Of a stretch of 15,464 bases of DNA, positions 1 to 15,464 are shown one piece after another. Where the stretch lies: IMG/VR virus record IMGVR_UViG_2671180268_000006; one strand, given 5' to 3'. Both the position numbers and the translations under genes were made by a program. Below the pieces are notes generated by a model. The model made no database searches. It saw nothing but the letters and a program-made list of their open reading frames with translations, and was not told the DNA's origin. Origin of the DNA: a virus. Taxonomy: Duplodnaviria; Heunggongvirae; Uroviricota; Caudoviricetes. Each line of letters opens with the position of its first letter. The stretch's first letter is position 1.

Positions 1-14
1 CTGTCCAATGTGCA

Positions 15-50
15 TAAAAAAATCCGGAAACAAGTGAGCGTTTCCGGATT
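15..50 (-). terminator. Candidate rho-independent terminator downstream of portal gene
   Basis: On the minus strand, hairpin TCCGGAAAC/GTTTCCGGA (plus 23-50) followed by a T-run (plus A-run 15-22), about 35 nt after the portal stop at 83-85. Not folded computationally. Confidence 0.4.
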
Positions 51-82
51 CTTACACAGCCACTGGATCGGTCAACTGATCC

Positions 83-1330: not shown

Positions 1331-1421
1331 AACCCGCCGGGGGATAAATCAGCCAGGCACCATACGCCAGCAAAAGCGCACCCAGCACGCCCACCAGAGG
1401 CGCGAGAATCAGCATGATCAT
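1239..1421 (-). CDS. Small predicted membrane protein (two hydrophobic segments), function unknown
   Basis: 60-aa ORF with ATG start preceded by GAGG 5 nt upstream, placed 11 nt after the terminase stop. Product [49 protein letters not shown] is strongly hydrophobic. It overlaps the first 91 nt of the portal ORF in another frame. Confidence 0.45.
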
Positions 1422-1432
1422 AATTACCTCAG

Positions 1433-3166
1433 TTAAAGCGAGCGGATCCCGTAGGACTCAATGTGGTCAGACAGCGTGTCTTCTTTCTCGTACAGCATGG
1501 CTCTGCCAACCGCCATAATCAGCGCAACTGCACCATCGATTTTGTTTTCCGCCTGCTCTTTGACGGGTTTCACCACATCATCGTTACCCGGCATGTTTTT
1601 GCCGACCACGTTGCCGATACACCAGGTCATGATGGGATTGCCGTCATGATGAAAACGTCCCGATTCAATCGCTGCTTCCAGCTCTTTCATCGGATCGGAC
1701 ATATTGGTGAAGTTCTGGACGATAGTGACGGGATTCAGGTCTTCATCAGCAAGGTCATGTGACAACCCGGTCGCCCCGAAGGGGTCGATGGGTGACTCAC
1801 TGACCGGGCTGATTTTGTTCGCCGCTTTGGCCTCCTCGAGGATGTAGCGATAATCCACCTCCGCACCATCGGTAACGGTCAGAACGCCCATTTCCACCCA
1901 TTTCTGAAAGCGTTCGGCTGTCCGTCGATCTTCATTTTTCTCGACGCTGTACACCGTGTCATACGGTACCCAGAAACGCGGGGCCACACTGTAGTAATGC
2001 GTTTTACCGTCAATCTCGCGGGTATAAAGTCGCGCCATGCTGTTCATATCCAGCTTACGCGCCAGGTCAAAGGCCAGAATGCACGGCTGCCCCTCGAACT
2101 GCTCAAGGGTCAGTGATTTATCCTCGCAGCTCTGCCAGCTCACCAAGTTGAAATACGCCGAACGCGCCGACACCCAGATATTGAGGTGTTTTGTTTTAAA
2201 GACGTTTGCCAGACGGGCGTTATTTTTCGCACGCTGCTGCTGACTTAACAAAAATTCGCGATAAACCGACACGCCAATATTTGGATTGGCTTTTTCCAGC
2301 ACCTGCGGGCCGGTCCAGTCGTCACCTTCATCAACGGTATAGATGATCCCGAACAGTTCATCGTTAGGCACCGAGCCGTTGAGCATCTCGATGACTTCCC
2401 GCCGCTTGTCGTAGCACGGCCCCTCAATGTTGTACCCGGCGGTGGTGATGGCCCACATCAGTGGCTGACGTCGCGCCCCCATCCCGGTAAGCATTGTGGT
2501 ATAAAGCGCATCGGTGGCATGCTCGTGATATTCATCAACCACGGCACAGTGGGGTGATGAACCATCACCTGGGTTGCCGATCAGCGGTTCAAACCGCGCG
2601 CCATCCTCCGGACGGTTCATGTTTGAGGCGTTAACCTCAATCCCGAACGCTTCCGTCAGCATGGGTGTGCGTTTACACATCAGTCGCGCCGGGCGAAAGA
2701 CTTCCCACGCCTGTTTCTCTGTCGTGGCACCGGAATACACTTCCGCGCCAAACTCGTTATCACAGGCAAAACAATACAGGGCAACACCGGCAGAGATTGC
2801 TGATTTGCCGTTCTTACGGGGGATTTCGGTGTACACCTCCCGGAAGCGGCGCAACCGGGTGCCTTTATTGACCCAGCCAAACGCACAGCAGATCACAAAT
2901 AGCTGCCACGGCTCCAGCGTGATGGGCATCCGTTTGAATGCCCACTCCCCCTTGGTGTGCGGCAACAGCTGAATAAATTTCGCGGCCCGTTCAGCCAGGT
3001 CCTTGTCGAAGCGGTAACGAAACGACTTACTTTTTTCCGCCATCAGGTCATCAAGATGGCGCTGGCAGGCCTGAATCACAAACTGGCAGGCAACAATCTT
3101 TCCGCGCACGACATCCCGGGCATACTGATTTGCAGCATTTACGTTGGGGTAAGATTTCCGGCTCAT
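1433..3166 (-). CDS. Terminase large subunit
   Basis: 577-aa ORF with ATG start overlapping the small-subunit stop (ATGA). Size and position between small terminase and portal; family assignment is from recognition, not a search. Confidence 0.88.
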
Positions 3167-3657
3167 GATTCGATAATTTTCAGAAACGGGTTAGTGGCTT
3201 TCTTCTGCCCCGCCAGGCCAATCAGACGCTGGCGGCTGCTGGGGTCGAGTCCGAGCATTGCCCCCGTGCTGCTCATCTCGGACTCCTGTTCTTTTTTGGC
3301 GGTCAGCTCCGGATTTTTGACCCTGCCGCCCATTGCACCGGTGATGGTGTTGCCCTGTATGGCAATATTTTTCACGGCACGTCGCCAGAACTCATAGGCC
3401 ACGCACCACCGCTCAAGTACCGCCAGGTCAGTCACGCACAGCAGGCCCTGACCGCAGAGTTCTTTGGTTGTCAGTTGCCACATGATCGTGGCGAGAGGGA
3501 GATCTTCTTCAGCGAACCACTCTGGTGGCTCAACACCTTTGATGGGCGTAAAAACAGGTTCATCTTTGTTCAGGGCTCGCTTGCCGGGGTTTCCGGCCAG
3601 CGCCTTGCGCGCCGTTGGCTTGGGGCGACGCCCGGAACGCCCCGCCGTTCCAGCCAT
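3163..3657 (-). CDS. Terminase small subunit (P27-family-like)
   Basis: Track ORF 3163..3666 begins at GTG with no spacing from AGGAG; the ATG at 3657 sits 8 nt downstream of AGGAG, giving 164 aa. Basic N-terminus ([13 protein letters not shown]) and position directly upstream of terL. Confidence 0.8.
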
Positions 3658-3666
3658 ATGCGGCAC

Positions 3667-3778
3667 TCCTGGTTAAATTTCATTTTTCGCGGGTATAAAA
3701 AAACGATGGGGCGGGCAGTCCGGAAGACGTCAGGTCACAGGGATTTGCCCCGCCCCTCCCTACAAGTGAGAATAATTA
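3667..3778 (-). other. HNH-terS intergenic region with GC-rich inverted repeat; candidate cos site and/or terminator
   Basis: Plus 3708-3718 GGGGCGGGCAG and 3747-3756 GCCCCGCCCC form an imperfect inverted repeat, followed on the minus strand by a T-run (plus 3696-3703). In HK97-like phages cos lies between the HNH gene and terS. Inference only. Confidence 0.3.
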
Positions 3779-4129
3779 TCACCGGATTCGTTCGCGCGCT
3801 GTTTTCGCTTTATGGCAGGGCCAGCACAGACTCTGCAGGTTGCTGTCTGCGTCTGTTCCGCCATGCGCTTTCGGGATGATGTGGTCGACGGTTTTCGCCT
3901 CGCTCACCACACCGACACGCAGACACAACTGACACAGACCTTTATCGCGCTTCAGAATACGGGCACGAATCACCGTCCATTTTGAGCCATAGCCACGCTG
4001 GTGGCGGCTCAGTCCGCGCTGGTGCTGCACCCAGCCTTCACCGCGATGTTTATCGCAGTAACCCGAACTGTCTGTGGTTGTACCTGCACATCCACGCTTA
4101 CGGCAGGCACGTGGGATTAGTGATGGCAT
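3779..4129 (-). CDS. HNH endonuclease (terminase-associated)
   Basis: 116 aa, ATG with GAGG 6 nt upstream. Cys pairs (CRKRGC, CDKH) and DHIIPKAHGG...N...CWPCH motif typical of HNH nucleases; adjacent to terS as in HK97-like packaging modules. Confidence 0.85.
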   Translation of the reverse strand: MPSLIPRACRKRGCAGTTTDSSGYCDKHRGEGWVQHQRGLSRHQRGYGSKWTVIRARILKRDKGLCQLCLRVGVVSEAKTVDHIIPKAHGGTDADSNLQSLCWPCHKAKTARERIR

Positions 4130-4171
4130 AAATACCTCATACCCTGCGAAATGTTTACCACGATAAAAAGG

Positions 4172-4636
4172 CTACTTAATGCACTGAGTGCGGATATACT
4201 CCTGTGCCCCTTCCAGTTGCATCTGCATCGTCATCAGCCGCTCTCTGAGGGTGAAATAATCCCGTTCAGCGGTGTCTGCCAGTCGGGGGCTGGTTGCATT
4301 ATCCACGCCGGAGGCGGTGGTGGCTTCACGCACTGACTGACAGACTGCTTTGATGTGCAACCGACGACGACCAGCGGCAACATCAGCGCGCAGAGTTTCA
4401 TTTTCAGCTTTCGCATCAGCTAACTCCTTCGTGTATTTAGCATCGAGTGCATTAACATCACGCTGTCTCTGCTGCATGTCAGTAATGGTTGCGTTCGCCA
4501 GCTTCAGTTCTCTTGCGTTTTTGTCGCGCTGCTCTTTGTAGGTAATGGCGTTATCACGGTAATGATTAACAGCCCATGACAGGCAGACGATGATGCAGAT
4601 AACCAGAGCGGAGATAATCGCGGTGACTCTGCTCAT
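4172..4636 (-). CDS. Rz: Rz i-spanin
   Basis: Translation [34 protein letters not shown]... closely matches lambda Rz as I recall it; start ATG overlaps the R stop (ATGA). Track ORF starts 4 codons earlier at GTG. Confidence 0.9.
4234..4416 (-). CDS. Rz1: Rz1 o-spanin (lipoprotein) embedded in Rz in the +1 frame
   Basis: 60 aa, [38 protein letters not shown]...; lipobox LVVVGC and proline-rich stretch as in lambda Rz1; lies wholly inside Rz. Confidence 0.85.
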
Positions 4637-5130
4637 TGCTGCCCCCACAAACAGACTTCACGCTCAATCTCACGACGGGTCATCAGCCCTTTCCATTGCT
4701 TACCGCCAGCATATGTCCAGCGACATAGCTGGTCACATGCGCCTTTGATATAGCCCTGGTTTATTTTGCGAAGAAGCGTCGATGTTCTGAAATTGCCAGC
4801 GCCCACGTTGTAAACGAACGAGTAAAGAGCGCCGCGCGTTGTTTCCGGTATATCGACTTTGATGTACGGGTTAATTTGTCTGGCGACAGTGGCAAGGTCT
4901 TTATTCAGGAGGGCTTTGCATTCTGCTTCGGTATACGTTTTACCGAGCATGATGTCTTTTCCGGTGTGTCCGTGACATACAGTCCATACACCAATGATAT
5001 CTTTGTATGGTATGTAGCTGACACCTTCCAGACCATCGTTACCACCTGGGCCAGTGATTAACACAGATGCTATAGCAACAGCCCCACCACCAATAGCAGC
5101 TGCAACAGCCTTGCGTAATGATGGCGACAT
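4633..5130 (-). CDS. R: SAR endolysin (phage-21 R-like lysozyme)
   Basis: 165 aa; N-terminal Gly/Ala-rich weakly hydrophobic SAR-like segment ([20 protein letters not shown]) followed by a lysozyme-like domain. Start overlaps S stop (TAATG). Match to phage 21 R is from memory. Confidence 0.88.
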
Positions 5131-5345
5131 TATTCACCTCTCGCAGCCTTACGCTTGTCTTCTCTTATTTTGAAATACAGATTTGTCAGATAAGTCAGAA
5201 GCCCCAGAAGCAGACTTCCCAGCACACCAATCGCAGCCCACTGTGATGGACTGACCTGATCCAACCACTGCAAAAACCAGTAGCCGGCACTGCCGGCGGA
5301 GGTGCCGTAGGCAATGCCTGTTGATATTTTTTCCATCTGATACAT
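5130..5345 (-). CDS. S: Class II holin / pinholin (phage-21 S-like) with dual-start motif
   Basis: 71 aa, [53 protein letters not shown]...; two in-frame ATGs at codons 1 and 4 (5345 and 5336), matching the S21 antiholin/holin arrangement as I recall it. Confidence 0.88.
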
Positions 5346-5376
5346 ATCCCGCCCCCCGACAGACCTGTGCTATCGG

Positions 5377-5411
5377 AAAGAAAAAAGGCCATCAGCAAAA
5401 CTCTGATGGCC
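5377..5411 (-). terminator. Candidate rho-independent terminator upstream of S
   Basis: Minus-strand hairpin GGCCATCAG(8-nt loop)CTGATGGCC (plus 5387-5411) followed by TTTTTTCTTT (plus A-run 5378-5386). Q-modified polymerase would be expected to read through. Confidence 0.45.
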
Positions 5412-6025
5412 TGAATCACCTTTACCAATATTGTATGAAAAAACACGCACGACTAATTGACAATAATTTTCATTTCCATTAAAAAAGATCGCGTAGCATT
5501 CTTAATTCATGAGGAACTTTACCCGCCAGCAATCTGAGTAGCGAAAGCTGTTCATCCCCAATGTTTTTGCTGGCGGGTCCTTTTTTCTACGGTCCTCCTC
5601 CCCGGAGGGGGGCATTTCATTATTTTTCTAATCGTTACTGGTGAGAAGGCGGAAGAAAAAGCCAGTTCTTCGCCCCTAAATAACAGCATGATTCCAGTCC
5701 ATGCAAAATCTGATTTCCAGCTCACACATACCGAGCACTGTACAAAAAACCGCCAGCCAAGGCAGTTAAGAGTGTGTTCCCGGGGTTTGCTTAGAATATT
5801 TTGTAAGTTGTCCGAAGAGATATTTACAACACCAGAATGATGAATCATCAGTCCCCTGCCAGAGGTTCACTACGTAACCTGACCGACAATGCACCATTCT
5901 GGTGCTGAAAAAAGAGCACTGGAACTGCAACAAAACAACATCACAGAACAGGAGATGGTAAGGAGTCAGACATTCCCACACAATATTGTGTCAGTGCAAA
6001 TAACAACCTTCGTCTCAAATCTCGC

Positions 6026-6100
<75 letters not shown>

Positions 6101-6103
6101 ATA

Positions 6104-6179
<76 letters not shown>

Positions 6180-6181
6180 GC

Positions 6182-6258
6182 TGGCCCACCACCGAGGACT
6201 CGAACCTCGCACCGTCAACTTAGAAGGTTGATGCTCTATCCGGATGAGCTAGTGGTGG
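6182..6258 (-). tRNA. tRNA-Arg (anticodon UCU), atypical C1-G72 acceptor pair
   Basis: TAGCTCA D-arm, anticodon stem TCAAC/GTTGA, loop CTTCTAA, T-arm CGAGG-TTCGAGT-CCTCG, acceptor CCACCAC/GTGGTGG, discriminator G, CCA encoded. The 5' nucleotide is C, not the usual G. Confidence 0.78.
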
Positions 6259-6259
6259 T

Positions 6260-6336
6260 TGGTGGCCCTTGCTGGACTTGAACCAGCGACCTGGCGATTA
6301 TGAGTCGCTCGCTCTGACCAACTGAGCTAAAGGGCC
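6260..6336 (-). tRNA. tRNA with CAU anticodon, ileX-like (tRNA-Ile2 via lysidine, or elongator Met)
   Basis: GGCCCTTTAGCTCAGTTGGTCAGAGCGAGCGACTCATAATCGCCAGGTCGCTGGTTCAAGTCCAGCAAGGGCCACCA; acceptor GGCCCTT/AAGGGCC; anticodon loop CTCATAA. Similarity to E. coli ileX is from memory. Confidence 0.85.
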
Positions 6337-6525
6337 GGAGGCAGAATAATAACCATATGTCATCACATCTGCAAACTCATCTGACCACCAGCACGTTTAA
6401 CGTCCTGTGCCGTTTTTCAGGTATAAAAAAACCCGCTCATCGGCGGGTTTAAGCTGTGTGGCGTAGTAACCACTCTTAACAGGATATTCAACTTTTTACG
6501 ATCGTAAAGTTTTCGGAAAAAATTT

Positions 6526-7095
6526 TTAAAACCGCATCAACCGCTCCACCAGTTGCTCTTTACGGGCAACGATCCACCCGTGTTGCTCCAGATAAAATTT
6601 AAACCGTTCCAGAGTACATACCATCGCATCGGCGGGTACCTTTTCCGTGAACTCAACCTGACCGTGTTTATCGAAGTGGCTCAGTAATGCGCATCCATCA
6701 TTTTCGATAGATGTGTTTTGTGCCGCTGGTGGCTGTTTCTGGTTGAAATAACAGTCTTCCAGTTTTTCGAACACTTCCCACGCCTGATCGGTTTCGAGCA
6801 TTTTGGCGTGACGGGCTGCGCCACGTTCTGTCCAGAGGATGAGGGAGCGAACGTTACGGGCAATTTTCACAGAAACTCTTAAAGAGTTTTCGTTCTTCAA
6901 CTCTCGTAACGCATCACCTTCTATCAGGAAAAAATGTTTACCTTCTATAAACCGTTCTTTGTTTCGATTGAAATTGTTTGTCAAACGCTGGCGCTCTGTT
7001 CCGTACAAATCAGCCAGCAGCTCTGTTGTCATGACAGGAAGATGGTTATGCGTAAGTGACGGGAGTTTTTCAATAGACGTGCGATTCATAGACAT
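6526..7095 (-). CDS. ORF6N-like (Bro-N/antirepressor-like) domain phage protein, function unknown
   Basis: Track ORF 6526..7287, but the first ATG with an upstream AAAGGA is at 7095 (MSMNRTSIEKLPSLTHNHLPVMTTELLADLYGTERQRL...), about 189 aa. Domain name is from recognition of this N-terminal pattern, not a search. Confidence 0.65.
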   Translation of the reverse strand: MSMNRTSIEKLPSLTHNHLPVMTTELLADLYGTERQRLTNNFNRNKERFIEGKHFFLIEGDALRELKNENSLRVSVKIARNVRSLILWTERGAARHAKMLETDQAWEVFEKLEDCYFNQKQPPAAQNTSIENDGCALLSHFDKHGQVEFTEKVPADAMVCTLERFKFYLEQHGWIVARKEQLVERLMRF

Positions 7096-7448
7096 GTCCT
7101 TTCGAATATTTTGATTTACCCCTTTTGAGAGGGTGACCGGGCGCTCAAAACCGTCGAAAGTCGGCGGGCGTATTTCCATTGCTGGTATTGTATTAGCCGC
7201 ACACCCGGTCATAAACCAAGAATTCTGGACACAAAAAAACCACATGGCTATCGGGTGTGGATACCGCTTTCGAGGTGTTTTGAGCACCGCGGGGAAATGT
7301 AAACTGCAAACCTGAAACTGTCAACACCGTCAGGTTCCAATCATCGGGTGGTGAGACGCACAGGGTTGGAACTACCGGGAAACCGACCGGCGAGCTTTTC
7401 AGCTCCCCCATGCGCCCCACCATAATTCAGATGTGCGCGTGCATACGA

Positions 7449-7475
7449 CAATAAAAAACACGCTCGCGGCGTGTG
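7449..7475 (-). terminator. Candidate tR'-like terminator downstream of Q
   Basis: Minus strand CACGC-CGCGA-GCGTG hairpin (plus 7459-7473) followed by TTTTTTATT (plus A-run 7451-7458), about 60-70 nt downstream of the candidate pR'. Confidence 0.45.
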
Positions 7476-7535
7476 TCTGTCGCGGTCTCTATCCGGGGTT
7501 CCAATCCCGACGCCAGATTTTGCTGGCGCGTGAGG

Positions 7536-7565
7536 AATATAGCCCCGGACAATGTGTCTGGTCAA
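7536..7565 (-). promoter_or_regulatory. Candidate late promoter pR' (TTGACC-18 nt-TATATT)
   Basis: On the minus strand just after the Q stop (7570): -35 TTGACC (plus 7560-7565), 18-nt spacer, -10 TATATT (plus 7536-7541). Position matches the lambdoid Q/pR'/tR' arrangement. Confidence 0.4.
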
Positions 7566-7569
7566 GCAC

Positions 7570-7956
7570 CTACATAATTCGTTCTACGTATCTGTCCATC
7601 TCCAGCCGGATATCAAGCATCATCAACATGCCATCAATAACCCCTTCCGCTTTCTGCAGGCGCTTGCCAATACAGGTATCCGAACACCCATGTTTCCGTG
7701 CCAGACTCATAAAAGTCATTCCACCTACGTAATAATCCACCAGCAAATCGTGCAAATCCTGATTTTTCTTGTTCAACCGGGCCATACAGCCACAAATTAT
7801 CATTGCATCATCATCAGAACACTGAGGGCGTGATTTCACTTTCGACGGAATTAACCCTTTAAAACCAGCAGCGATCGACGCCCAGGATACATCTTCATGA
7901 GTGTTTGCAGCCCAAGCCCCCCACCGTTCCATAACCTGCTGAATATCACGCGCCAT
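7570..7956 (-). CDS. Q: Antitermination protein Q (82/21-type)
   Basis: [64 protein letters not shown]... is typical of the non-lambda Q family. Start chosen at ATG 7956 (AGGTGA 6 nt upstream); track ORF begins 7 codons earlier at 7977. Confidence 0.85.
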
Positions 7957-8317
7957 CGTTATCACCTGTGATTTCATAAATCTTCACGCCCAGTCGCCCA
8001 CCAGGAACGAGCTGACCGCGCACAATATTGATTTCATCAAACTGCTCGTCGTCTATGAGTAGTCCGGCATGCGTCAGCGCATCCAGTGGTGCTTTCAGGA
8101 TATTGTCCAGGTCACGACGGCGCTTATCCGGTGGCTCTGCAATAATCTTTATCGCCAGCCTTCCGGACAGGTTTAATTTCAGCCGCTGCTGGCGAACAAT
8201 TAGCGTCACATCACGGCGATAACGCTCACCAACTTTTGATACAAAATATGTGCTGCCACGACGTCGCCAGTAAGTATTCACCGTCGGCGGATAAGGTAAA
8301 ATAAACTCATGGCGCAT
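7946..8317 (-). CDS. rusA: RusA Holliday-junction resolvase
   Basis: 123 aa; [14 protein letters not shown]-terminus and [29 protein letters not shown] acidic catalytic region characteristic of RusA. Start overlaps the stop of the upstream 85-aa ORF. Confidence 0.9.
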
Positions 8318-8693
8318 CAGCGCAGCACCTCCTGCACCATTTTTTCAAACTTTCCAACTTTGGTTTCCAGCTCTGCCACACAATCAACGAGCTCATCCAC
8401 CGCTTTTTGTGCGCGATGTTTCGCCTGCATCAGTTCCCTGAGCGCTGGCACCATATCCCGACGAATGGCATCTTTTGTTACACCTGTTTTTTCCAGTTGT
8501 TCCGCCTGTCGCAACATTTCCTGCGCGTGTTTACGCAATTGTTCAGAGGTAAAAGTCATTGTCTGGTTGTTCAAAAGAAACGCTCCATCTTACTGCTGTC
8601 GGTACGTGTATTGCTGTATCTGCGCGGCTGGGGCTGCCGCATTGGGGTGGAAAGAACCTGTGCGCTTTCCTGGTCCACAGGCAGAAAATGTCC
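8211..8693 (-). repeat. Inverted repeat copy A (helicase 3' end, 85-aa gene, rusA 5' end)
   Basis: Reverse complement is highly similar to 12018..12500. Judged from aligned translations (helicase C-terminus ...SSKMERFF, about 6 substitutions in the 85-aa protein, first 35 RusA residues nearly identical). Exact identity not computed. Confidence 0.8.
8317..8574 (-). CDS. Conserved small phage protein with coiled-coil character, function unknown
   Basis: 85-aa ORF (MNNQTMTFTSEQLRKHAQEMLRQAEQLEKTG...). Track start at 8574 is TTG overlapping the helicase stop; the first ATG is at 8559. A near-identical copy lies at 12137..12394 on the plus strand. Confidence 0.6.
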   Translation of the reverse strand: MNNQTMTFTSEQLRKHAQEMLRQAEQLEKTGVTKDAIRRDMVPALRELMQAKHRAQKAVDELVDCVAELETKVGKFEKMVQEVLR

Positions 8694-9962
8694 GTTATAA
8701 AAACGCCGGTAAATCGTCCCCAGAGAACCGTTACGTTGTTTCGTGATATTAATTTCTGCTATGCCTGTAGCCTGTGTATCCGGGTTGTACACTTCATCCC
8801 TGTAAAGCATCAGAATGATGTCTGCATCCGCCTCTATTTCTCCGGAATTTTTCAGGTCTGAGTTCATGGGACGTTTATTGGGTCTGGACTCCACACCGCG
8901 GGAGAGCTGGCTCAGCGCAATCAACGGAAAACCACCGGATTTTGCCAGGCCTTTAAGCCCCTTTGAGATTTCACCCACGGCAAGGTCATGACGCCCCGTG
9001 GTTCGGGTTTTTATCAGCCCGAGATAATCAACCACCACCAGCGCCGTTTCCGGATGTTTAATCAGATGGTGTTTCGTTGTTGCGCATATCTCATCAATGG
9101 TCAGGTTCGCCTGGTCCACCATCCAGATATTGCGCCCGGTCATCCGCCCCACCCCTTGTGAGAAACGCGCCCAGTCTTCATCTTCAAAGTGAGCCACAGA
9201 TTTCAGGCGTGATACTGGCATCCCTCCAGCCGCAGACACCATACGTTCACCAATCTGGATGTTCGCCATCTCCATGGTGAACAGAAGCACACCATGCCCC
9301 TGCTCAGTCACCTTGTCGATGATGTCCAGCGCAAGTTCGGTTTTCCCCATCGAAGGACGGGCGGCAATGAATACCAGGTCTCCGGGCTCCATACCGCCTG
9401 TTTTTGCGTCCAGTTCATCAATACCGGTCATCAACGTCCTGGATTTCTCCAGCCCCTGATTCCGGCATTCAACACGCTCAACCACTTCCGGAAGCACATC
9501 ATCAATATGTACCGGCTGAATGACGCCCTTTCCTGTCGACAGTGTGACCATCATGTTCTGCGCATCCTTCAGGGCATCTTCAGCTGCTTCACAGGTATGC
9601 GCATCACGTAATTTCTGCAGCGCCTCATTCAGTGTTTTTTCTGCATCGCGCAGTGCGGCATTGCGCCGCAACGCTGCAACATAGTGCTCCAGTGAAGACT
9701 TCACCCAGGTTTTACGCCCGGTATCAGTAATCACCGGGGCAAGTTCCGGCATCTCATTACACAACAGCACGGGGTCAATCACTCCTGAAACACGGGCCTG
9801 TCTGCAGATGCCTGTGTAGATATCCCGATACGCTCGTACAGAAAAAATGTCCGCCGGTAGTGTGATCAGAATATCCATCACTTCATGATCTGCCCCACGC
9901 AGAAAGAATGCGCCAATGACAGCGCCTTCCAGGTCATCATTACGCCAGACTGGTGTTGTCAT
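8571..9962 (-). CDS. Replicative DNA helicase (DnaB-like)
   Basis: Start set at ATG 9962 (GAGGTG 8 nt upstream), 463 aa. Walker A region DLVFIAARPSMGKTELAL and later LSQLSRGVESRPNKRPMNSDL, EADADIILMLYRDEVY match DnaB-family motifs. The track ORF extends into IS2 and those 47 codons are not part of the gene. Confidence 0.85.
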   Translation of the reverse strand: MTTPVWRNDDLEGAVIGAFFLRGADHEVMDILITLPADIFSVRAYRDIYTGICRQARVSGVIDPVLLCNEMPELAPVITDTGRKTWVKSSLEHYVAALRRNAALRDAEKTLNEALQKLRDAHTCEAAEDALKDAQNMMVTLSTGKGVIQPVHIDDVLPEVVERVECRNQGLEKSRTLMTGIDELDAKTGGMEPGDLVFIAARPSMGKTELALDIIDKVTEQGHGVLLFTMEMANIQIGERMVSAAGGMPVSRLKSVAHFEDEDWARFSQGVGRMTGRNIWMVDQANLTIDEICATTKHHLIKHPETALVVVDYLGLIKTRTTGRHDLAVGEISKGLKGLAKSGGFPLIALSQLSRGVESRPNKRPMNSDLKNSGEIEADADIILMLYRDEVYNPDTQATGIAEINITKQRNGSLGTIYRRFYNGHFLPVDQESAQVLSTPMRQPQPRRYSNTRTDSSKMERFF

Positions 9963-10077
9963 GCAGCCACACCTCTGATACAAGAACGGTAGCTGGGCCA
10001 GTTGAACGACAACCAGTTGCGCCCCCCGTCTGTGATCCTGTCGGCAATGCGGGGGCTGATGAACGCTGGATTTGCCC

Positions 10078-10983
10078 CTATATTTCCAGACACCTGTTAT
10101 CACTTAACCCATTACTGGCTTGCTGCCGTAGATATTCCCGTGGCGAGCGATAACCCAGTGCACTATGCGGATGCCATTCGTTATAATGCTCGAACGCCTC
10201 TGCAAGGTTCTTTGCTGCCGTTAACCCGTCTGGTTTGGGCATGACACTGATGTAGTCACGCTTTATCGTTTTCACGAAGCTCTCTGCTATGCCGTTACTC
10301 TCCGGACTCCGCACCGCCGTGCTCTTCGGTTCAAGCCCCAACATCCGGGCAAACTGCCGTGTTTCATTAGCCCGGTAGCATGAACCATTATCCGTCAGCC
10401 ACTCTACTGGAGACGCCGGAAGCTCGTTGCCGAAGCGGCGTTCCACCGCTCCCAGCATGACGTCCTGTACTGTTTCACTGTTGAAGCCGCCCGTAGTGAC
10501 CGCCCAGTGCAGTGCCTCACGGTCACAGCAGTCCAGCGCGAACGTGACTCGCAGTTTTTCTCCGTTATCACAGCGGAACTCGAACCCGTCAGAGCACCAT
10601 CGCTGATTACTTTCTTTCACAGCCACTCTGCCTGTATGTGCCCGTTTCGATGGCGGTACAGCAGGTTTTCGCTCAAGCAACAGCGCATTCTGGCGCATGA
10701 TCCGGTAAACACGTTTGGCATTGATCGCAGGCATACCATCAAGTTCTGCCTGTCTGCGAAGCAGCGCCCATACCCGACGATAACCATACGTGGGCAGCTC
10801 TCCGATAACATGGTGTATACGGAGAAGCACATCCGTATCATCAGTGTGACGACTGTGGCGGCCATCCATCCAGTCATCGGTTCGTCTGAGAATGACGTGC
10901 AACTGCGCACGCGACACCCGGAGACAACGGCTGACTAAGCTTACTCCCCATCCCCGGGCAATAAGGGCGCGTGCGCTATCCAC
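10078..10983 (-). CDS. insD: IS2 transposase OrfB (InsD), normally made as InsCD fusion by -1 frameshift
   Basis: 301-aa ORF with rve/DDE-type integrase core (…WCSDGFEF…, …LTDNGSCY…, …ESNGIAESF…); overlaps orfA over 10941-10983 where the A6G slippery site sits. Confidence 0.85.
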
Positions 10984-11306
10984 TTTTTTGCCCGTCCATA
11001 TTCAACGGCTTCTTTGAGGAGTTCATTTTCCATCGTTTTCTTGCCGAGCAGGCGCTGGAGTTCTTTAATCTGCTTCATGGCGGCAGCAAGTTCAGAGGCA
11101 GGAACAACCTGTTCTCCGGCGGCGACAGCAGTAAGACTTCCTTCCTGGTATTGCTTACGCCAGAGAAATAACTGGCTGGCTGCTACACCATGTTGCCGGG
11201 CAACGAGGGAGACCGTCATCCCCGGTTCAAAGCTCTGCTGAACAATTGCGATCTTTTCCTGTGTGGTACGCCGTCTGCGTTTCTCCGGCCCTAAGACATC
11301 AATCAT
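10941..11306 (-). CDS. insC: IS2 OrfA (InsC)
   Basis: 121 aa from [41 protein letters not shown]... (helix-turn-helix region); track ORF starts 15 codons earlier at a non-ATG codon. Confidence 0.85.
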
Positions 11307-11397
11307 CTGTACTCCAATGACTAGTCTAAAAACTAGTATTAAGACTATCACTTATTTAAGTGATACTGGTTGTCTGGAGATTCAGGGGGCCAGTCTA

Positions 11398-11417
11398 NNN
11401 NNNNNNNNNNNNNNNNN
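11398..11417. other. Assembly gap (20 N)
   Basis: Run of 20 ambiguous bases starting immediately after the IS2 left end; the classic signature of a scaffold join at a repeat. Confidence 0.95.
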
Positions 11418-11514
11418 GAAGGGAAAGGGCCTTCCCGAGAGTGGTAAAGGAGAGGCCCTGGAAATACCCCACTCCCCCTCTGCCAACCCAATACAGATTT
11501 TAAAGATTATATAG

Positions 11515-11802
<288 letters not shown>

Positions 11803-11860
11803 CGAAAGTATTTAGCGGGCATGAAAATGGCAAATAACGGTCAAACATCGTGGCGTTGAC

Positions 11861-12016
11861 ACAATTGCGATCTTTTCCTGTGTGGTACGCCGTCTGCGTT
11901 TCTCCGGCCCTAAGACATCAATCATCTGTACTCCAATGACTAGTCTAAAAACTAGTATTAAGACTATCACTTATTTAAGTGATACTGGTTGTCTGGAGAT
12001 TCAGGGGGCCAGTCTA
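11861..12016 (-). mobile_element. IS2 left-end fragment (156 bp, same orientation as the complete copy)
   Basis: 11861-12016 is identical or near-identical by eye to 11242-11397 (IS2 left inverted repeat plus first ~21 codons of orfA), ending in the same ...GGGGGCCAGTCTA terminus. Confidence 0.8.
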
Positions 12017-12017
12017 C

Positions 12018-12140: not shown

Positions 12141-12394
12141 ACAACCAGACAATGACTTTTACCCCTGAACAATTGCGTAAACACGCGCAGGAAATGCTGC
12201 GTCATGCTGAACAACTCGAAAAAACGGGCATAACAAAAGACGCTATCCGTAAAGATATGGTACCCGCGCTTCGGGAACTGATGCAGGCGAAGCATCGCGC
12301 ACAGAAAGCAGTAGATGAGCTGGTGGACTGTGTGGCAGAGCTGGAAACCAGAGTCGGAAAGTTTGAAAAACTGGTGCAGGAGGTGCTGCGCTGA
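12137..12394 (+). CDS. Conserved small phage protein (second copy of the 85-aa coiled-coil protein)
   Basis: 85-aa ORF differing from the 8317..8574 product at about six positions; GGAG 8 nt upstream of the TTG at 12137, first ATG at 12152. Confidence 0.6.
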   Translation: MNNQTMTFTPEQLRKHAQEMLRHAEQLEKTGITKDAIRKDMVPALRELMQAKHRAQKAVDELVDCVAELETRVGKFEKLVQEVLR

Positions 12395-12500
12395 TGCGCC
12401 ATGAGTTTATTTTACCTTATCCGCCGACGGTGAATACTTACTGGCGACGTCGTGACAACACATATTTTGTATCAAAAGCCGGTGAGCGTTATCGCCGGGA
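12394..12500 (+). pseudogene. rusA 5' fragment (about 35 codons) joined to a Q gene
   Basis: [35 protein letters not shown] parallels the RusA N-terminus at 8317-8211, then diverges at an ambiguous base (n at 12501); the catalytic region is absent. Confidence 0.7.
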
Positions 12501-12513
12501 NGCAGGTCAAAAA

Positions 12514-13368
12514 ATGAAACTGGAAGATTTACCGAAATACTACTCCCCAAAATCCCCTTGCCTGACCGATGCATCGGCCTCAACGTCAAAAGATGCGCTG
12601 AGTATCACTGATGTGATGGCCGCGCAGGGCATGACACAGAATCGGGCTGAGATGGGGTTTTCTGCGTTCCTGGGGAAAATGGGCATCAGTATGAATGACA
12701 GGGCGCGGGCAACAGAATTACTGGCAGATTATGCACTCAGTCGGTGCGATCGTGTGGCGGCGTTGAGAAAACTTCCGGCAGAAATAAAACCGGTAGTGAT
12801 GCGCATTATGGCTTCGTACGCTTTTGAGGATTATGCCCGCAGCGCAGCGAGTAAAAAGCAGTGCCCTTGTTGCTATGGGGAAAAATTTATTGAAAGCGTA
12901 GTTTTTACAAACAAGGTCCAGTATCCGGATGGTAAGCCGCCGGTATGGGCAAAGTGTACGAAAGGTGTGTATCCGTCTTACTGGGAAGAATGGAAAAAAG
13001 TCAGGGAGGTGGTAAAAGTTGCCTGTCCGGAGTGTGGCGGAAAGGGTGAGGTTTCCACCGCCTGTAAGGATTGCCGTGGGCGTGGTGTCGCCATTCATCG
13101 TGAAGAGTCGGTAAAACGTGGTATGCCTGTTATCAGAGACTGCCAGCGTTGTGGTGGTCGTGGCTATGAAAGACTACCATCAACGGAGGCATTTAATGCT
13201 ATATGCGAGGTGACAAACCAGATAACACGCGCGTCATGGGAAAAAACAGTTAAGAAATTCTATGATGCGCTGGTGACTCGGTTTGATATTGAAGAAGCAT
13301 GGGCTGAGCGGCAGTTAAAAAAGGTAACTAGGTTGATTTTTCCGGAATCTGTGGTAAATTCGTCATAA
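12514..13368 (+). CDS. Q: Antitermination protein Q, lambda-type, with expanded Cys-rich (CxxCxGxG) region
   Basis: From ATG 12514: MKLEDLPKYYSPKSPCLTDASASTSKDALSITDVMAAQGM... parallels lambda Q (HSPKSP...DVMAAMGM, recalled from memory). Three CxxCxGxG-like motifs (CPECGGKG, CKDCRGRG, CQRCGGRG). 284 aa, longer than lambda Q; no strong SD upstream, so start is tentative. Confidence 0.72.
   Translation: MKLEDLPKYYSPKSPCLTDASASTSKDALSITDVMAAQGMTQNRAEMGFSAFLGKMGISMNDRARATELLADYALSRCDRVAALRKLPAEIKPVVMRIMASYAFEDYARSAASKKQCPCCYGEKFIESVVFTNKVQYPDGKPPVWAKCTKGVYPSYWEEWKKVREVVKVACPECGGKGEVSTACKDCRGRGVAIHREESVKRGMPVIRDCQRCGGRGYERLPSTEAFNAICEVTNQITRASWEKTVKKFYDALVTRFDIEEAWAERQLKKVTRLIFPESVVNSS
13333..13360 (+). 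promoter_or_regulatory. Candidate pR'-like promoter overlapping the Q 3' end (TTGATT-16 nt-TAAATT)
   Basis: -35 TTGATT at 13333-13338, 16-nt spacer, -10 TAAATT at 13355-13360, just before the Q stop (13366-13368). Pattern only. Confidence 0.3.
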
Positions 13369-13407
13369 CTATGGGCGTTTTATGCCTGACGTTAGAAGAG
13401 TTTCTAC

Positions 13408-13434
13408 AACCCGCCGCCGAGCGGGTTTTTTATT
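13408..13434 (+). terminator. Rho-independent terminator downstream of Q (tR'-like)
   Basis: AACCCGC-CGCCGA-GCGGGTT hairpin followed by TTTTTTATT, about 40 nt after the Q stop. Confidence 0.55.
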
Positions 13435-13470
13435 GCGGAATTAATTACGGACCGTTATTATTCTGCTCCC

Positions 13471-13546
13471 GGCCCTTTAGCTCAGTGGTGAGAGCGAGCG
13501 ACTCATAATCGCCAGGTCGCTGGTTCAAATCCAGCAAGGGCCACCA
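13471..13546 (+). tRNA. tRNA with CAU anticodon, ileX/ileZ-like (tRNA-Ile2 or Met)
   Basis: GGCCCTTTAGCTCAGTGGTGAGAGCGAGCGACTCATAATCGCCAGGTCGCTGGTTCAAATCCAGCAAGGGCCACCA; acceptor GGCCCTT/AAGGGCC, anticodon loop CTCATAA, CCA encoded. Differs at a few positions from the 6260..6336 copy. Confidence 0.85.
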
Positions 13547-13646
13547 TCACAAACCGCCATTAGCTTATCAGGAAGAGCAGACGACACGATAACAGGGTTG
13601 TTGGTGCGGGGGCGGGTCCCCGATGGCGGTCCATTATCGGTATTCA

Positions 13647-13723
13647 GCGTTGTTAGCTCAGCCGGACAGAGCAATTGCCTTCTAAGCAATCGGTCACTGG
13701 TTCGAATCCAGTACAGCGCGCCA
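13647..13723 (+). tRNA. tRNA-Arg (anticodon UCU)
   Basis: GCGTTGTTAGCTCAGCCGGACAGAGCAATTGCCTTCTAAGCAATCGGTCACTGGTTCGAATCCAGTACAGCGCGCCA; acceptor GCGTTGT/ACAGCGC (one G-U), anticodon loop CTTCTAA, T-loop GGTTCGAATCC. Confidence 0.85.
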
Positions 13724-13860
13724 TATTCATTCTTCCAGATTCCTTCCGGCAGAGCCTTATACTGAAATATACCTGGCTCAGGATATTGTTGAAAATATTT
13801 TATGTTTGTCAAAAATAAAAGTTCTGTTAAGTATTGATTGAGTGTTTGTTATACGGTCTA

Positions 13861-14187
13861 ATGGTTTTTTCAGCATTAAATATTTATCATTCATATGGTG
13901 TGGGTAGAGTGAATATTGATGAGGCGTCGGGGTGTTTCATCCTTAGGCAGCGTATTGATATAGTCAATGCAGCACGAGCAAAGGCCTTCAGCCGTTTGAC
14001 AGTTTTGTTCTGTACTCCTGATCGTCTTTCGGGAAGAGACGTTATTATTCTGAATAGTGATGCTATACAGAGGGTTTGCGATGAGTTCATGGTTGCTAAT
14101 TCAGAATTATTTGCTCTTGTTCAGGAGTACAACAGAATAGCCAGGACCTGTGGTATGGATGAACTTCGGATTACTCATCTGGGGTAG
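13861..14187 (+). CDS. Hypothetical protein in AT-rich cargo island, function unknown
   Basis: Track ORF 13834..14187 starts at TTG; first ATG at 13861 gives 108 aa (MVFSALNIYHSYGVGRVNIDEASGCFILRQRIDIVNAARAKAFSRL...). No recognisable motif and weak SD; coding status uncertain. Confidence 0.4.
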   Translation: MVFSALNIYHSYGVGRVNIDEASGCFILRQRIDIVNAARAKAFSRLTVLFCTPDRLSGRDVIILNSDAIQRVCDEFMVANSELFALVQEYNRIARTCGMDELRITHLG

Positions 14188-14222
14188 ATACATATCTGGA
14201 TTATCACCTGTTACGGTAAAAA

Positions 14223-14354
14223 GTGATTGCTTACTGTTTTTGTGAATGGCATTGCAGCAGCCGGATAATGTCAGTGCTGGCTGACGGTGTGCTGGTGGCG
14301 GGTGTGGTGGTTGTTGCTTTCCCGTTGCTGAAAAAGAAAACGCCAGACTGTTAG
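14223..14354 (+). CDS. Candidate small hydrophobic peptide (28 aa from ATG 14268, 43 aa from GTG 14223)
   Basis: ATG at 14268: MSVLADGVLVAGVVVVAFPLLKKKTPDC*, a single hydrophobic stretch with a polybasic tail. Weak SD (GCCGGA). Highly speculative. Confidence 0.2.
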   Translation: MIAYCFCEWHCSSRIMSVLADGVLVAGVVVVAFPLLKKKTPDC

Positions 14355-14578
14355 CCGGGTATCAGTTAGCGGGAGAAATTTTTAAATACTTCACAATTCA
14401 GGCGGTTGACTGTTGTCTGGTTTGCGGGGAGTTTGTTAAAAGAAACTGGCATGGTGAATCCCCCTGTGCGGAGGGGCAATCAGCGAGTAGGTATATGGGA
14501 TAATCGCGGATTCAGGTGCTGGTACTGAATTCACCGGGAGGCACCCGGCACCATGCAATGGCACATAGCGCCACTCTC

Positions 14579-14614
14579 CAGCCCCTCTCCGGAGGGGCTG
14601 TTTATATTGATTTT
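14579..14614 (+). terminator. Rho-independent terminator in cargo island
   Basis: CAGCCCCT-CTCCGG-AGGGGCTG hairpin followed by TTTATATTGATTTT on the plus strand; on the minus strand the same hairpin has no T-run after it. Confidence 0.5.
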
Positions 14615-14634
14615 GTCAGATGTGAGTAAACTCC

Positions 14635-14970
14635 TTATGGACTTTGTTGTTTTAGTCCATAAGGACATATTTGCAGAGTGCAACGGTTATTAAAGCATTC
14701 ATTCAATACGTTATCTGTATTTGTAGGGCATTCCTGGCTATTTTTGATTGAATTCCAGAATGTTTTATTGAATGGTACTACGTTGTAAATGGTTACAGGT
14801 AGCACTTTGTTATTGAGCATGATGCCTGTGTGAGTCAGTGTAAATATACTTTCAGGAGGTAAGAAAGCATCCGATTGATACCAGATTATTAATTTTATTT
14901 TACTCCATATGACTGAAAAAGATATTCCGCATGATGGCTGGATAACTGTATCAATCACAATCCACTTCAT
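14635..14970 (-). CDS. Hypothetical low-GC protein (111 aa), function unknown
   Basis: ATG start with AAGGAAAC 5-6 nt upstream; markedly AT-rich with several Cys residues near the C-terminus; no obvious signal peptide. Convergent with the 108-aa ORF. Confidence 0.55.
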
Positions 14971-15230
14971 TTAGTTTCCTTGTTTATGCCTTGCTGGTGA
15001 TGTTCTGAAAAGTATAAATGATATTTTTGAATGTAAACCATAGAGCAGAATTATTTTTCTGATGTTGTTTATTGTTTATTTAAATGCAGGGTGGTTTATA
15101 TCTCGTCTTGTAGTTTATCCATGCATATCTGCTTGATAATCAGGTTTTTATTTAAGGTATGGTTTTGTGTTTTTTCTGTATTACATGTCAGGTATTTTAA
15201 AGAATTATTTTTCAGATGGTGGAAAGAACC

Positions 15231-15404
15231 ATGGCATTTAAACACTATGATGTTGTCAGGGCGGCGCCGCCGTCAGATCTTGCGGAAAAGCTGACACATA
15301 AACTGAAAGAGGGCTGGCAGCCGTTTGGTAGTCCGGTGGCCATAACCCCTTATACCCTGAGGTGTACTGGCAATAGCGGACACTACCATTTGTTCTTTTT
15401 TTAA
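15231..15404 (+). CDS. Small phage protein, function unknown
   Basis: Track ORF 15216..15404; second ATG at 15231 has GGAAAG upstream, giving MAFKHYDVVRAAPPSDLAEKLTHKLKEGWQPFGSPVAITPYTLRCTGNSGHYHLFFF (57 aa). I could not confirm a family name. Confidence 0.45.
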   Translation: MAFKHYDVVRAAPPSDLAEKLTHKLKEGWQPFGSPVAITPYTLRCTGNSGHYHLFFF

Positions 15405-15464
15405 GCAGCCATCTGATGATATTTTTCCCTGAAGGCTGCCGGGGAGATATTCCCCAGACGAGAG

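Follow-up and report, generated by a model that had tools for sequence, protein, structure and literature searches.

The AT-rich stretch that follows the Q gene and two tRNA genes in the 15,464-nt phage DNA analysed here (the window) is accessory DNA of a lambdoid prophage from E. coli/Shigella, and most of it has already been described. Judged from sequence comparison, it is not one island but two independent insertions situated on either side of a conserved small RNA. IraL, the STnc100 RNA and the DUF3927 micro-protein were known before; the only new point is an unannotated gene, here called ORF92 after its conserved core of 92 codons. As an overall account we are highly confident of a decayed, IS-riddled prophage, in which the accessory segment reaches from the Q/PR'/tR'/tRNA block to the lysis cassette and the two insertions flank the sRNA.

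The original prediction had regarded this segment as the best place in the window to look for something undescribed. This expectation does not hold for the segment, which is 98-99.6% identical to prophages of well-known strains: positions 13400-15360 show 99.4-99.6% identity to prophages of 042 and EC958 (ST131) and 98% to that of CFT073, and 862 of 5426 complete genomes cover at least 80% of this query. Nor does it hold for iraL, characterised in 2014 (PMC4045071), or for STnc100 and DUF3927, which are catalogued families. It survives for the 108-aa ORF only, a member of phrog_2873, whose function is not assigned. The finding itself therefore adds little, the copy being near-identical to those of the well-studied strains CFT073, 042 and ST131. 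Identities, positions, conservation and coding signature given below come from our analysis; the function and promoter of IraL and the expression of STnc100 are taken from literature. Coordinates of all features are collected in Table 1.

Table 1. Features located in the window between the Q gene and the IS600 end (positions in the whole stretch)
Feature	Position	Strand	Basis
PR'-like late promoter (putative)	13333..13360	+	read from sequence
tR'-like intrinsic terminator just 3' of Q	13408..13435	+	hairpin 13408-13427 plus tail
tRNA, CAT anticodon; RefSeq tRNA-Ile (ileZ type)	13471..13546	+	
tRNA-Arg (TCT)	13647..13723	+	
ORF92, phrog_2873 member, conserved 92-codon core from GTG 13909	13909..14187	+	profile and conservation
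DUF3927 / TciB-like micro-protein, 43 aa	14223..14354	+	Pfam PF13064, phrog_1470
STnc100-family small RNA (RF02076), 190 nt	14420..14609	+	Rfam covariance model
iraL, RssB anti-adaptor, IraM/IraL/RssC family	14635..14970	-	identity to CFT073, NCBIfam
iraL promoter: TSS 15003, -10 TATACT 15011-15016, -35 TTTACA 15032-15037	15003..15037	-	
DUF1737 N-terminal remnant of nanS-p sialate esterase gene	15216..15360	+	Pfam DUF1737, 57 bits
End of IS600 (IS3-family) element, cuts nanS-p remnant	15350..15464	.	98-99% identity to IS600 copies

The block upstream of the segment is organised as predicted, with a lambda-type Q antiterminator (Pfam PF03589, 183 bits), a terminator and both tRNAs. The terminator consists of a 7-pair stem (AACCCGC...GCGGGTT) followed by TTTTATTG. 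A putative late promoter, which we take to be similar to lambda PR', combines a -35 element TTGATT (13333-13338), a 16-nt spacer and a TG-extended -10 element TAAATT (13355-13360), and the initial transcribed region behind it includes the -10-like AACTAT. Its score of 8/12 lies under the threshold of our promoter scan. An 8-bp deletion has removed the stop codon of the window's Q, which now carries 11 extra residues that run over the -35 element of PR'. With the lysis side cut by IS600 in addition, Q-dependent expression may no longer occur in this host.

The predicted drop of base composition behind the tRNAs is real: GC content of positions 13730-15215 is 39.4% against 50.3% for the whole window, so that the segment ranks among the lowest 0.3% of stretches of 1486 nt (minimum at 13761). 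The AT-richness is patchy. It resides in the spacer 13724-13908 (31% GC), in iraL (34.5%) and in the region upstream of iraL (14971-15215, 28.6%); the DUF3927 gene (51%) and STnc100 (55%) do not share it.

The two insertions become apparent when the window is compared with the stx-less phi296. Three blocks are common to both, i.e. the tRNAs (13431-13731), the sRNA (14382-14599) and the 5' end of nanS (15230-15338). Between tRNAs and STnc100 there are 57 nt in phi296 and 650 nt in the window, where ORF92 and the DUF3927 gene are found; between STnc100 and nanS there are 231 nt in phi296 and 630 nt in the window, where iraL is found. The gaps agree with the variable cargo position foreseen between Q, tR', the tRNAs and the lysis genes. 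Besides, mEp460_ev081 shares the first slot with the window and lacks iraL. Slot 1 (approximately 13732-14381) holds ORF92 and a TciB-like membrane micro-protein on the late-operon strand, and slot 2 (approximately 14600-15229) is a classic moron with AT-rich iraL. There are two aspects by which morons can be judged. Firstly, absence between the same flanking blocks of a relative is observed for both insertions in phi296. Secondly, a promoter of its own and atypical composition are found for iraL (mapped promoter, 34.5% GC), whereas no convincing promoter was found for ORF92 and DUF3927, with GC content of 44-51%. By analogy of architecture, slot 1 would correspond to the stx position of Stx2 phages, a cargo position that also ends with STnc100, although in the window it holds ORF92 and DUF3927 and no toxin. 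Two cargo slots flanking a conserved sRNA can help in reading the Q-to-lysis region of other prophages, including Stx phages.

The minus-strand ORF of 111 aa in slot 2 is, by its sequence, IraL. Its product is identical to CFT073 WP_000871291.1 (potB prophage) in 110 of 111 residues, the exception being Leu74 replaced by Ser74, and the genes differ in 2 of 336 nt; iraL was defined in PMC4045071 by at least 95% identity to the CFT073 gene over the whole coding region, and the window copy lies within this limit. NCBIfam model NF007393 (IraM) matches residues 1-110 of 111 with 162 bits against a cut-off of 121, and phmmer aligns residues 1-78 with IraM of PDB entry 8twd (E 6e-31). The original prediction described this ORF correctly, including the strong ribosome-binding site (AAGGAA, six bases 5' of ATG), but its statement that no recognisable motifs are present is contradicted by the IraM match. 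The CFT073 locus has the same neighbours (DUF3927, STnc100, iraL, DUF1737 remnant, holin). The prophage in the window has decayed further than that of CFT073, with IS600 on its downstream side and scars of IS elements on the upstream side.

The iraL promoter is conserved as well. In CFT073 cells in log phase, 5' RACE located a sigma-70 promoter (PMC4045071), and the published mRNA end ACATCACCAGCAAGGCATAAACAAGGAAAC exactly matches positions 14974-15003. Promoter hexamers and mapped transcription start are the same in both copies. There are three differences from CFT073 in the 245 nt upstream of iraL, none of them in the -10 and -35 hexamers; single-base changes are seen at -1 and in the 5' UTR. 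Identity of at least 96% is expected for this region among iraL strains, and the window copy is within this range. Experiments with IraL of CFT073 demonstrated its binding to RssB and the stabilisation of RpoS (Hryckowian et al. 2014, PMC4045071). By analogy, iraL in the window would be transcribed leftwards from its own promoter in the lysogen, and its product would bind the RssB adaptor, block ClpXP degradation of RpoS and so raise sigma-S in growing cells. IraM of E. coli K-12 belongs to the same family (NF007393) and is reported to be about 59% identical to IraL. Mg starvation induces IraM, which touches both domains of RssB; IraL is active in log phase and touches the N-terminal domain only (PMC4045071).

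The element that separates both slots is a full-length STnc100 copy (132.4 bits against a gathering score of 47, model positions 1-206), with MFE of -74.6 kcal/mol (z -2.4). Its 3' end is a hairpin (14579-14600) followed by a T run. This is the plus-strand terminator noticed originally; the sRNA it ends was missed. Published STnc100 qPCR primers match the window at 14450 and 14523, and approximately 60 Stx-converting phages match the window over the sRNA stretch only. Stx2 phages carry a copy of STnc100 that follows the stx2 operon at a distance of 75 nt (PMC12370729), and EcOnc27, an Hfq-bound sRNA, partly overlaps the predicted STnc100 downstream of stx2B (PMC12711010). STnc100 copies of EDL933 were detected by RNA-seq and one of them by Northern blot (PMC5331693). 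Since transcription and Hfq binding are documented for other family copies in EHEC, the window copy would by analogy be an Hfq-type sRNA that ends at its own terminator. Like PasD, a prophage sRNA reported to be related to it and to be encoded directly upstream of the esterase gene (bioRxiv 10.64898/2026.05.13.724894), STnc100 typically sits at the end of a cargo slot, directly upstream of the nanS-p esterase gene; the window differs in that iraL lies between sRNA and esterase remnant.

According to the original prediction, the whole island would be expressed with the late operon, as Q-dependent cargo like stx that stays silent in the lysogen. It is true that ORF92, DUF3927 and STnc100 occupy the late strand downstream of the PR'-like promoter and tR', that a copy of STnc100 follows stx2 in Stx2 phages, and that directly 5' of ORF92 no promoter scoring at least 9/12 is present except the weak TTGAAA-16-AAAAAT (13789-13816). 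But iraL is encoded on the opposite strand, so that late transcription would be antisense to it, and its promoter was mapped in uninduced log-phase cells; because this sigma-70 promoter is conserved, iraL is not a gene of the late operon. STnc100 copies are, moreover, abundant in uninduced EDL933 cultures (PMC5331693). We consider late expression of the complete island unlikely and favour the two independent insertions. Since ORF92 and DUF3927 have no convincing promoter of their own, we infer that they would be read mainly from PR' by Q-modified polymerase; the late promoter could well serve the 108-aa ORF.

That ORF is the only part of the segment that deserves to be called new. It was predicted as a plus-strand frame of 108 aa, and besides the ATG at 13861 that gives this length it has in-frame starts at TTG 13834 (117 aa) and GTG 13909, all ending at 14187. 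Homologues at 57-63% and at 32-40% identity begin at the GTG point. ORF92 matches phrog_2873 over its full length (E 3.8e-70, profile positions 1-108). Twenty cluster representatives of its family were found; relatives have 91-95 aa at 32-40% identity, and one of them (L012) is preceded by GGAGA four bases 5' of its ATG. Of 5426 complete E. coli genomes, 1185 (about 22%) contain ORF92 DNA, and one E. coli species representative was the sole match when genome contigs were searched with alignment A2.

Coding capacity of ORF92 could be disputed. RefSeq might be right to omit it, in which case we would be looking at a chance open frame or an element that acts at DNA or RNA level: the CDS is not called by RefSeq/PGAP in 042, EC958, CFT073, mEp460_ev081 and 30 sampled genomes of the 1185, all three candidate starts have weak ribosome-binding sites, and 99% identity among E. 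coli copies is uninformative. Comparison with the clade of 60% identity speaks against this. The alignment of 92 codons (276 nt, 67% nucleotide identity) includes no indels, differences accumulate at third positions (44 versus 25 and 23 at the other two), dN/dS is 0.27 (dN 0.31, dS 1.13), and both other frames contain stops. Intact homologues of 91-95 aa keep a TPDR...EYN pattern down to 32% identity. The AF2 model, although built from only 7 sequences, is a confident helical hairpin (pLDDT 83.9, helices 3-35 and 50-81). Absence of a gene is therefore quite improbable in our view, and we conclude from the sequence and the model that ORF92 is a real protein-coding gene under purifying selection, with a soluble cytoplasmic helical hairpin as its predicted product. 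Yet annotation of this gene is systematically missing from the E. coli genomes of RefSeq that were checked; tagging or deleting it in CFT073 or ST131 would cost little.

The hydrophobic micro-ORF considered possible in the original prediction is indeed present behind ORF92. Its product scores 95.6 bits with Pfam PF13064 (gathering threshold 25) and E 7.8e-13 with phrog_1470, contains one hydrophobic segment followed by KKK, and is annotated as WP_000562553.1 in 042, EC958 and CFT073. The micro-ORF has a recognisable motif, then, namely DUF3927. Both families are shared with TciB of the P1 module tciA-tciB-tciC (TerB-like plus DUF3927), and relatives of ORF92 are likewise followed by tciA-like and tciB-like genes. 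In contrast, P1 has no ORF92 homologue (a counterpart was looked for beside tciAB), and the window has no tciA. Functions of P1 tci genes (tellurite or colicin resistance, division inhibition) were assigned by homology only, and no functional study of TciB or DUF3927/YlcG was found in literature.

What ORF92 does can be approached mainly from its neighbourhood. Profile and structure searches, which had been suggested for both ORFs, named the 111-aa product and left the 108-aa one without functional anchor: Pfam, NCBIfam and PADLOC profiles gave no function, and a Foldseek search of PDB and BFVD with the AF2 model returned generic helical hairpins only, none of them at E <= 0.001. Members of this narrow family always follow a Q gene, and three different Q families are represented. 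It often adjoins tciA/tciB-like genes, and the order ORF92, tciA-like, tciB-like, holin is found in L017-L020. In clade B, L012 and L021 the linkage to DUF3927 is missing or degraded, clade B retaining only a degenerate remnant of 21 codons. Because tciA/tciB-like genes recur beside ORF92, directly upstream of holins, we infer, with low confidence, that ORF92 would act with their products on the envelope around lysis or exclusion. A still fuller scenario, in which ORF92 is genuine, comes first among the coding genes of the Q-dependent late transcript and is a partner of TciA/TciB in lysis timing, exclusion or protection from membrane stress, is tentative and rather doubtful as a whole; the adjacent STnc100 may then be released as the 3' end of ORF92 mRNA.

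That ORF92 is instead a DNA-binding protein of GapR/UPF0335 (DUF2312) type is very improbable, and we rejected it: GapR chains are the top PDB sequence matches of the family profile (E 0.05-0.25; hhalign probability 45% over 47 columns), but these E-values are not significant, the four matches represent one protein, GapR structure is not among the 50 Foldseek PDB matches listed, Pfam DUF2312 does not match, and the net charge of about -1 (counted by hand) is unlike that of a basic DNA clamp. P0034, considered as a very distant homologue, has 21% identity, lies among Mu-like tail genes and probably bears no relation to ORF92.

At the downstream end of the segment, homology to 042 stops at 15360. 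The nanS-p gene is a pseudogene also in 042, EC958 and CFT073; in L010 it is intact and encodes 653 aa with DUF1737, SASA and DUF6645 domains.

The AT-rich segment 13730-15215, which the original prediction treated as one cargo island of uncharacterised genes, consists, by sequence comparison, of two independent cargo slots flanking a conserved small RNA. The stx-less Sepvirinae phage phi296 served as reference for the architecture. Three blocks are conserved with it: the tRNAs, the sRNA (14382-14599) and the nanS start (15230-15338). The gap between tRNAs and sRNA is 57 nt in phi296 versus 650 nt in the window, where it holds ORF92 (the 92-codon core of a 108-aa ORF) and a DUF3927 micro-ORF; the gap between sRNA and nanS is 231 nt versus 630 nt, the latter holding iraL. 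Phage mEp460_ev081 has the first insertion in common with the window (98.7% identity up to 14557) and lacks iraL, and in about 60 Stx-converting phages the match is confined to the sRNA stretch. These comparisons argue for two slots rather than one island. The reading as a cargo position was right. In Stx2 phages, a STnc100 copy lies 75 nt 3' of the stx2 operon (PMC12370729).

Both ORFs, the micro-ORF, the plus-strand terminator, Q with its terminator and the two tRNAs are all present as originally listed. The visible drop in composition is real as well, though patchy: GC is 39.4% versus a window mean of 50.3%, within the lowest 0.3% of all 1486-nt stretches of the window (minimum at 13761), and it falls to 31% in the spacer ahead of the first ORF, 34.5% in iraL and 28.6% in the 245 nt upstream of iraL, while the micro-ORF (51%) and the terminator/sRNA stretch (55%) are not AT-rich. 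The observation is confirmed in part only, and calling the elements undescribed was wrong for three of the four.

Features of the segment and of neighbouring DNA in the window
Feature	Position	Strand	Remarks
Second prophage: portal, large and small terminase, lysozyme	within 1-10100	-	
Second prophage: ORF6N-domain protein	within 1-10100	-	
Second prophage: tRNAs Gly, Thr, Arg, Met	6026-6336		
Second prophage: Rfam matches	7127-7542		sRNA-Xcc1, C4 antisense RNA, isrK, c4-a1b1
Second prophage: Q	7570-7977		family PF06530
IS3-family orfA/orfB	10078-11351		overlaps 5' end of DnaB-like helicase ORF
IstB (IS21) fragment	11518-11802		
IS2 end	~11850-12017		by what we take to be the IS2 terminal repeat
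Q antiterminator	12514-13368		Pfam PF03589
Terminator after Q	13408-13427	+	
Two tRNAs	13431-13731		conserved block, upstream of segment
ORF92	13909-14187	+	putative start GTG
DUF3927 micro-ORF	14223-14354	+	
STnc100 (RF02076)	14420-14609	+	Rfam 132 bits vs gathering score 47, full model
iraL	14635-14970	-	
iraL promoter	start 15003; -10 TATACT 15011-15016; -35 TTTACA 15032-15037	-	RACE match

The 111-aa minus-strand ORF, far from undescribed, is IraL, characterised in strain CFT073. Against NCBIfam's curated model for IraM it scores 162 bits, above the cut-off of 121; it also matches the solved IraM chain 8twd with E 6e-31 and is separated from the CFT073 protein by one residue (Ser74 here, Leu74 there). 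The potB prophage of CFT073 shows the same order: Q, tRNAs, DUF3927, STnc100, "anti-adapter protein IraM", DUF1737 pseudogene and holin. CFT073 IraL binds RssB and stabilises RpoS in logarithmic growth (Hryckowian et al., PMC4045071), and the iraL transcription start was mapped by 5' RACE (PMC4045071). Because the published mRNA 5' end exactly matches window 14974-15003 on the minus strand, start and hexamers can be placed as tabulated; over the 245 nt upstream of iraL, three bases are not those of CFT073, and all three lie outside the hexamers. Gene and promoter are intact in the window copy, and a survey of 5426 complete E. coli genomes found their DNA in 1446. By identity, mapped promoter and strand, iraL is thus a characterised gene with its own promoter, opposed to the late operon, and the proposed late-operon expression does not apply to it; late transcription would run antisense to this convergent gene. 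For another IraL copy (locus L010, 6775-7110), precomputed Pfam annotation gives PF11183 (PmrD), a hint that IraM/IraL and PmrD are related in fold; a Pfam scan at E <= 1 did not report this family for the window IraL.

The plus-strand terminator (hairpin 14579-14600) belongs to STnc100, a catalogued sRNA family that the original prediction overlooked. Published STnc100 qPCR primers align to the window at 14450 and 14523. In EDL933, RNA-seq detected 11 copies, and Northern blotting confirmed one of them (PMC5331693); EcOnc27, an Hfq-bound sRNA immediately 3' of stx2B, overlaps part of a predicted STnc100 (PMC12711010). According to a 2026 preprint, PasD sRNAs are related to the family, and pasD lies directly upstream of a sialate esterase gene (bioRxiv 10.64898/2026.05.13.724894). 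Since copies elsewhere are abundant in uninduced cultures, the window STnc100 probably has its own transcription start besides read-through. Some prophages carry two copies per Q-to-lysis region, in tandem at L008 (5352-5547 and 5612-5718) or flanking an AraC-regulator/IS2/ORF92 block at L004 (2344-2556 and 5650-5839). In strains 042, EC958 and CFT073, RefSeq places a "hypothetical protein" pseudogene antisense to STnc100 (window 14436-14564, minus strand; also L001 5040-5165 and L003 23270-23395). This pseudogene is probably spurious, and ORF92 just upstream the missed gene.

The hydrophobic micro-ORF likewise belongs to a known family: it matches Pfam PF13064 (DUF3927; 95.6 bits) and phrog_1470 ("TciB-like"), the families of P1 TciB, and is annotated as WP_000562553.1 in 042, EC958 and CFT073. 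A literature search for DUF3927/TciB found no functional study.

With IraL, STnc100 and DUF3927 already known, the 108-aa ORF is the sole real unknown left among the four elements. To it alone the term undescribed applies, as an unannotated, conserved gene of a narrow family of unknown function. It matches the function-unknown family phrog_2873 (E 3.8e-70) and nothing in Pfam, NCBIfam or PADLOC. Among the 5426 complete E. coli genomes, ORF92 DNA is present in 1185, at >=99% identity in 1179 of these. An overlapping CDS is absent in 29 of 30 records sampled across the ranking of these genomes (the exception being a partial, 70% match), and none is annotated in 042, EC958, CFT073 or mEp460_ev081. 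Several results support ORF92 as a protein-coding gene. With a second clade, 57-61% identical in protein, the 92-codon alignment is gapless (67% nucleotide identity), and the differences number 25 at first, 23 at second and 44 at third codon positions (dN 0.31, dS 1.13, dN/dS 0.27); both alternative frames contain stops. Searched exhaustively with a profile, 1.8 billion representatives yielded only 20 clusters, including 91-95-aa relatives, 32-40% identical, with a common TPDR...ANxEL...EYN pattern. Homologues begin at GTG 13909 or three codons earlier, and the L012 homologue has GGAGA four bases ahead of its ATG. Since conservation sets in at this GTG and the 16-25 codons upstream are poorly conserved, we take the core to be 92 aa from this putative start.

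AlphaFold2 models ORF92 as a hairpin of two helices (residues 3-35 and 50-81, pLDDT 83.9), for which Foldseek against PDB and BFVD returned generic hairpins only, none at E <= 0.001. A profile search also linked ORF92 weakly to GapR/UPF0335 (E 0.05; hhalign 45%), but the match falls short of significance and lacks fold support, with no GapR structure among the 50 PDB matches that Foldseek listed. At L004 (4990-5003), an IS2 end adjoins the GTG start of ORF92 of clade B in at least 24 contigs; the junction yields an artificial 119-aa fusion ORF (P0017) and leaves the 92-codon core unbroken.

After Q follow TTGATT (13333-13338), a 16-nt spacer, TG-extended TAAATT (13355-13360), AACTAT and then the terminator; by its resemblance to the PR', pause element and tR' of lambda, this arrangement would include a putative late promoter. 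ORF92, DUF3927 and STnc100 all follow it in that orientation. Because the genes are on the late strand and a promoter scan found no strong promoter directly ahead of ORF92, Q-dependent read-through past the tR'-like terminator would be the likeliest supply of ORF92 and DUF3927 mRNA.

In every readable locus, a Q gene precedes ORF92, which lies on the late strand; these Q genes belong to three different Pfam families: PF03589 (window, L010, L017), PF06323 (L008) and PF06530/DUF1133 (L012, L019). Relatives of 63% and 38% identity show the order ORF92, tciA-like (phrog_632, TerB), tciB-like (DUF3927), holin, endolysin. In clade B the order is AraC-type regulator, ORF92, STnc100, and DUF3927 is degenerate or absent; the link between the two genes is thus recurrent, not obligatory. 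From this context we tentatively suggest that ORF92 might act with Tci-type envelope proteins near lysis.

This prophage copy is decayed. As in 042 and CFT073, nanS-p persists only as a DUF1737 remnant; here, an end of IS600 (IS3-family; 15350-15464, 98-99% identical to annotated copies) is also inserted into it. The stop codon that ends Q in 042 and CFT073 is missing from the window, where 8 bp are deleted near ~13328 (AGGTAACA, one of the copies of a short direct repeat); Q thereby gains 11 residues (LIFPESVVNSS), reading over the PR'-like -35. rusA (12394-12513) is cut to about its first 35 codons and fused just before Q, and IS2, IS3-family and IS21 fragments lie upstream. Because of this decay, late expression in the window's host is doubtful. 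Given where IS600 is abundant, it and the other IS scars suggest Shigella or a similarly IS-rich host.

The pause-like AACTAT reads AACGAT in 042. Homology to the 042 prophage starts at 12501, next to an ambiguous base N at 12502. The IS debris runs over 10078-12017, and its IS2 end is the same as that abutting ORF92 in L004. Window 1-10100, on the minus strand, is a second prophage in opposite orientation.
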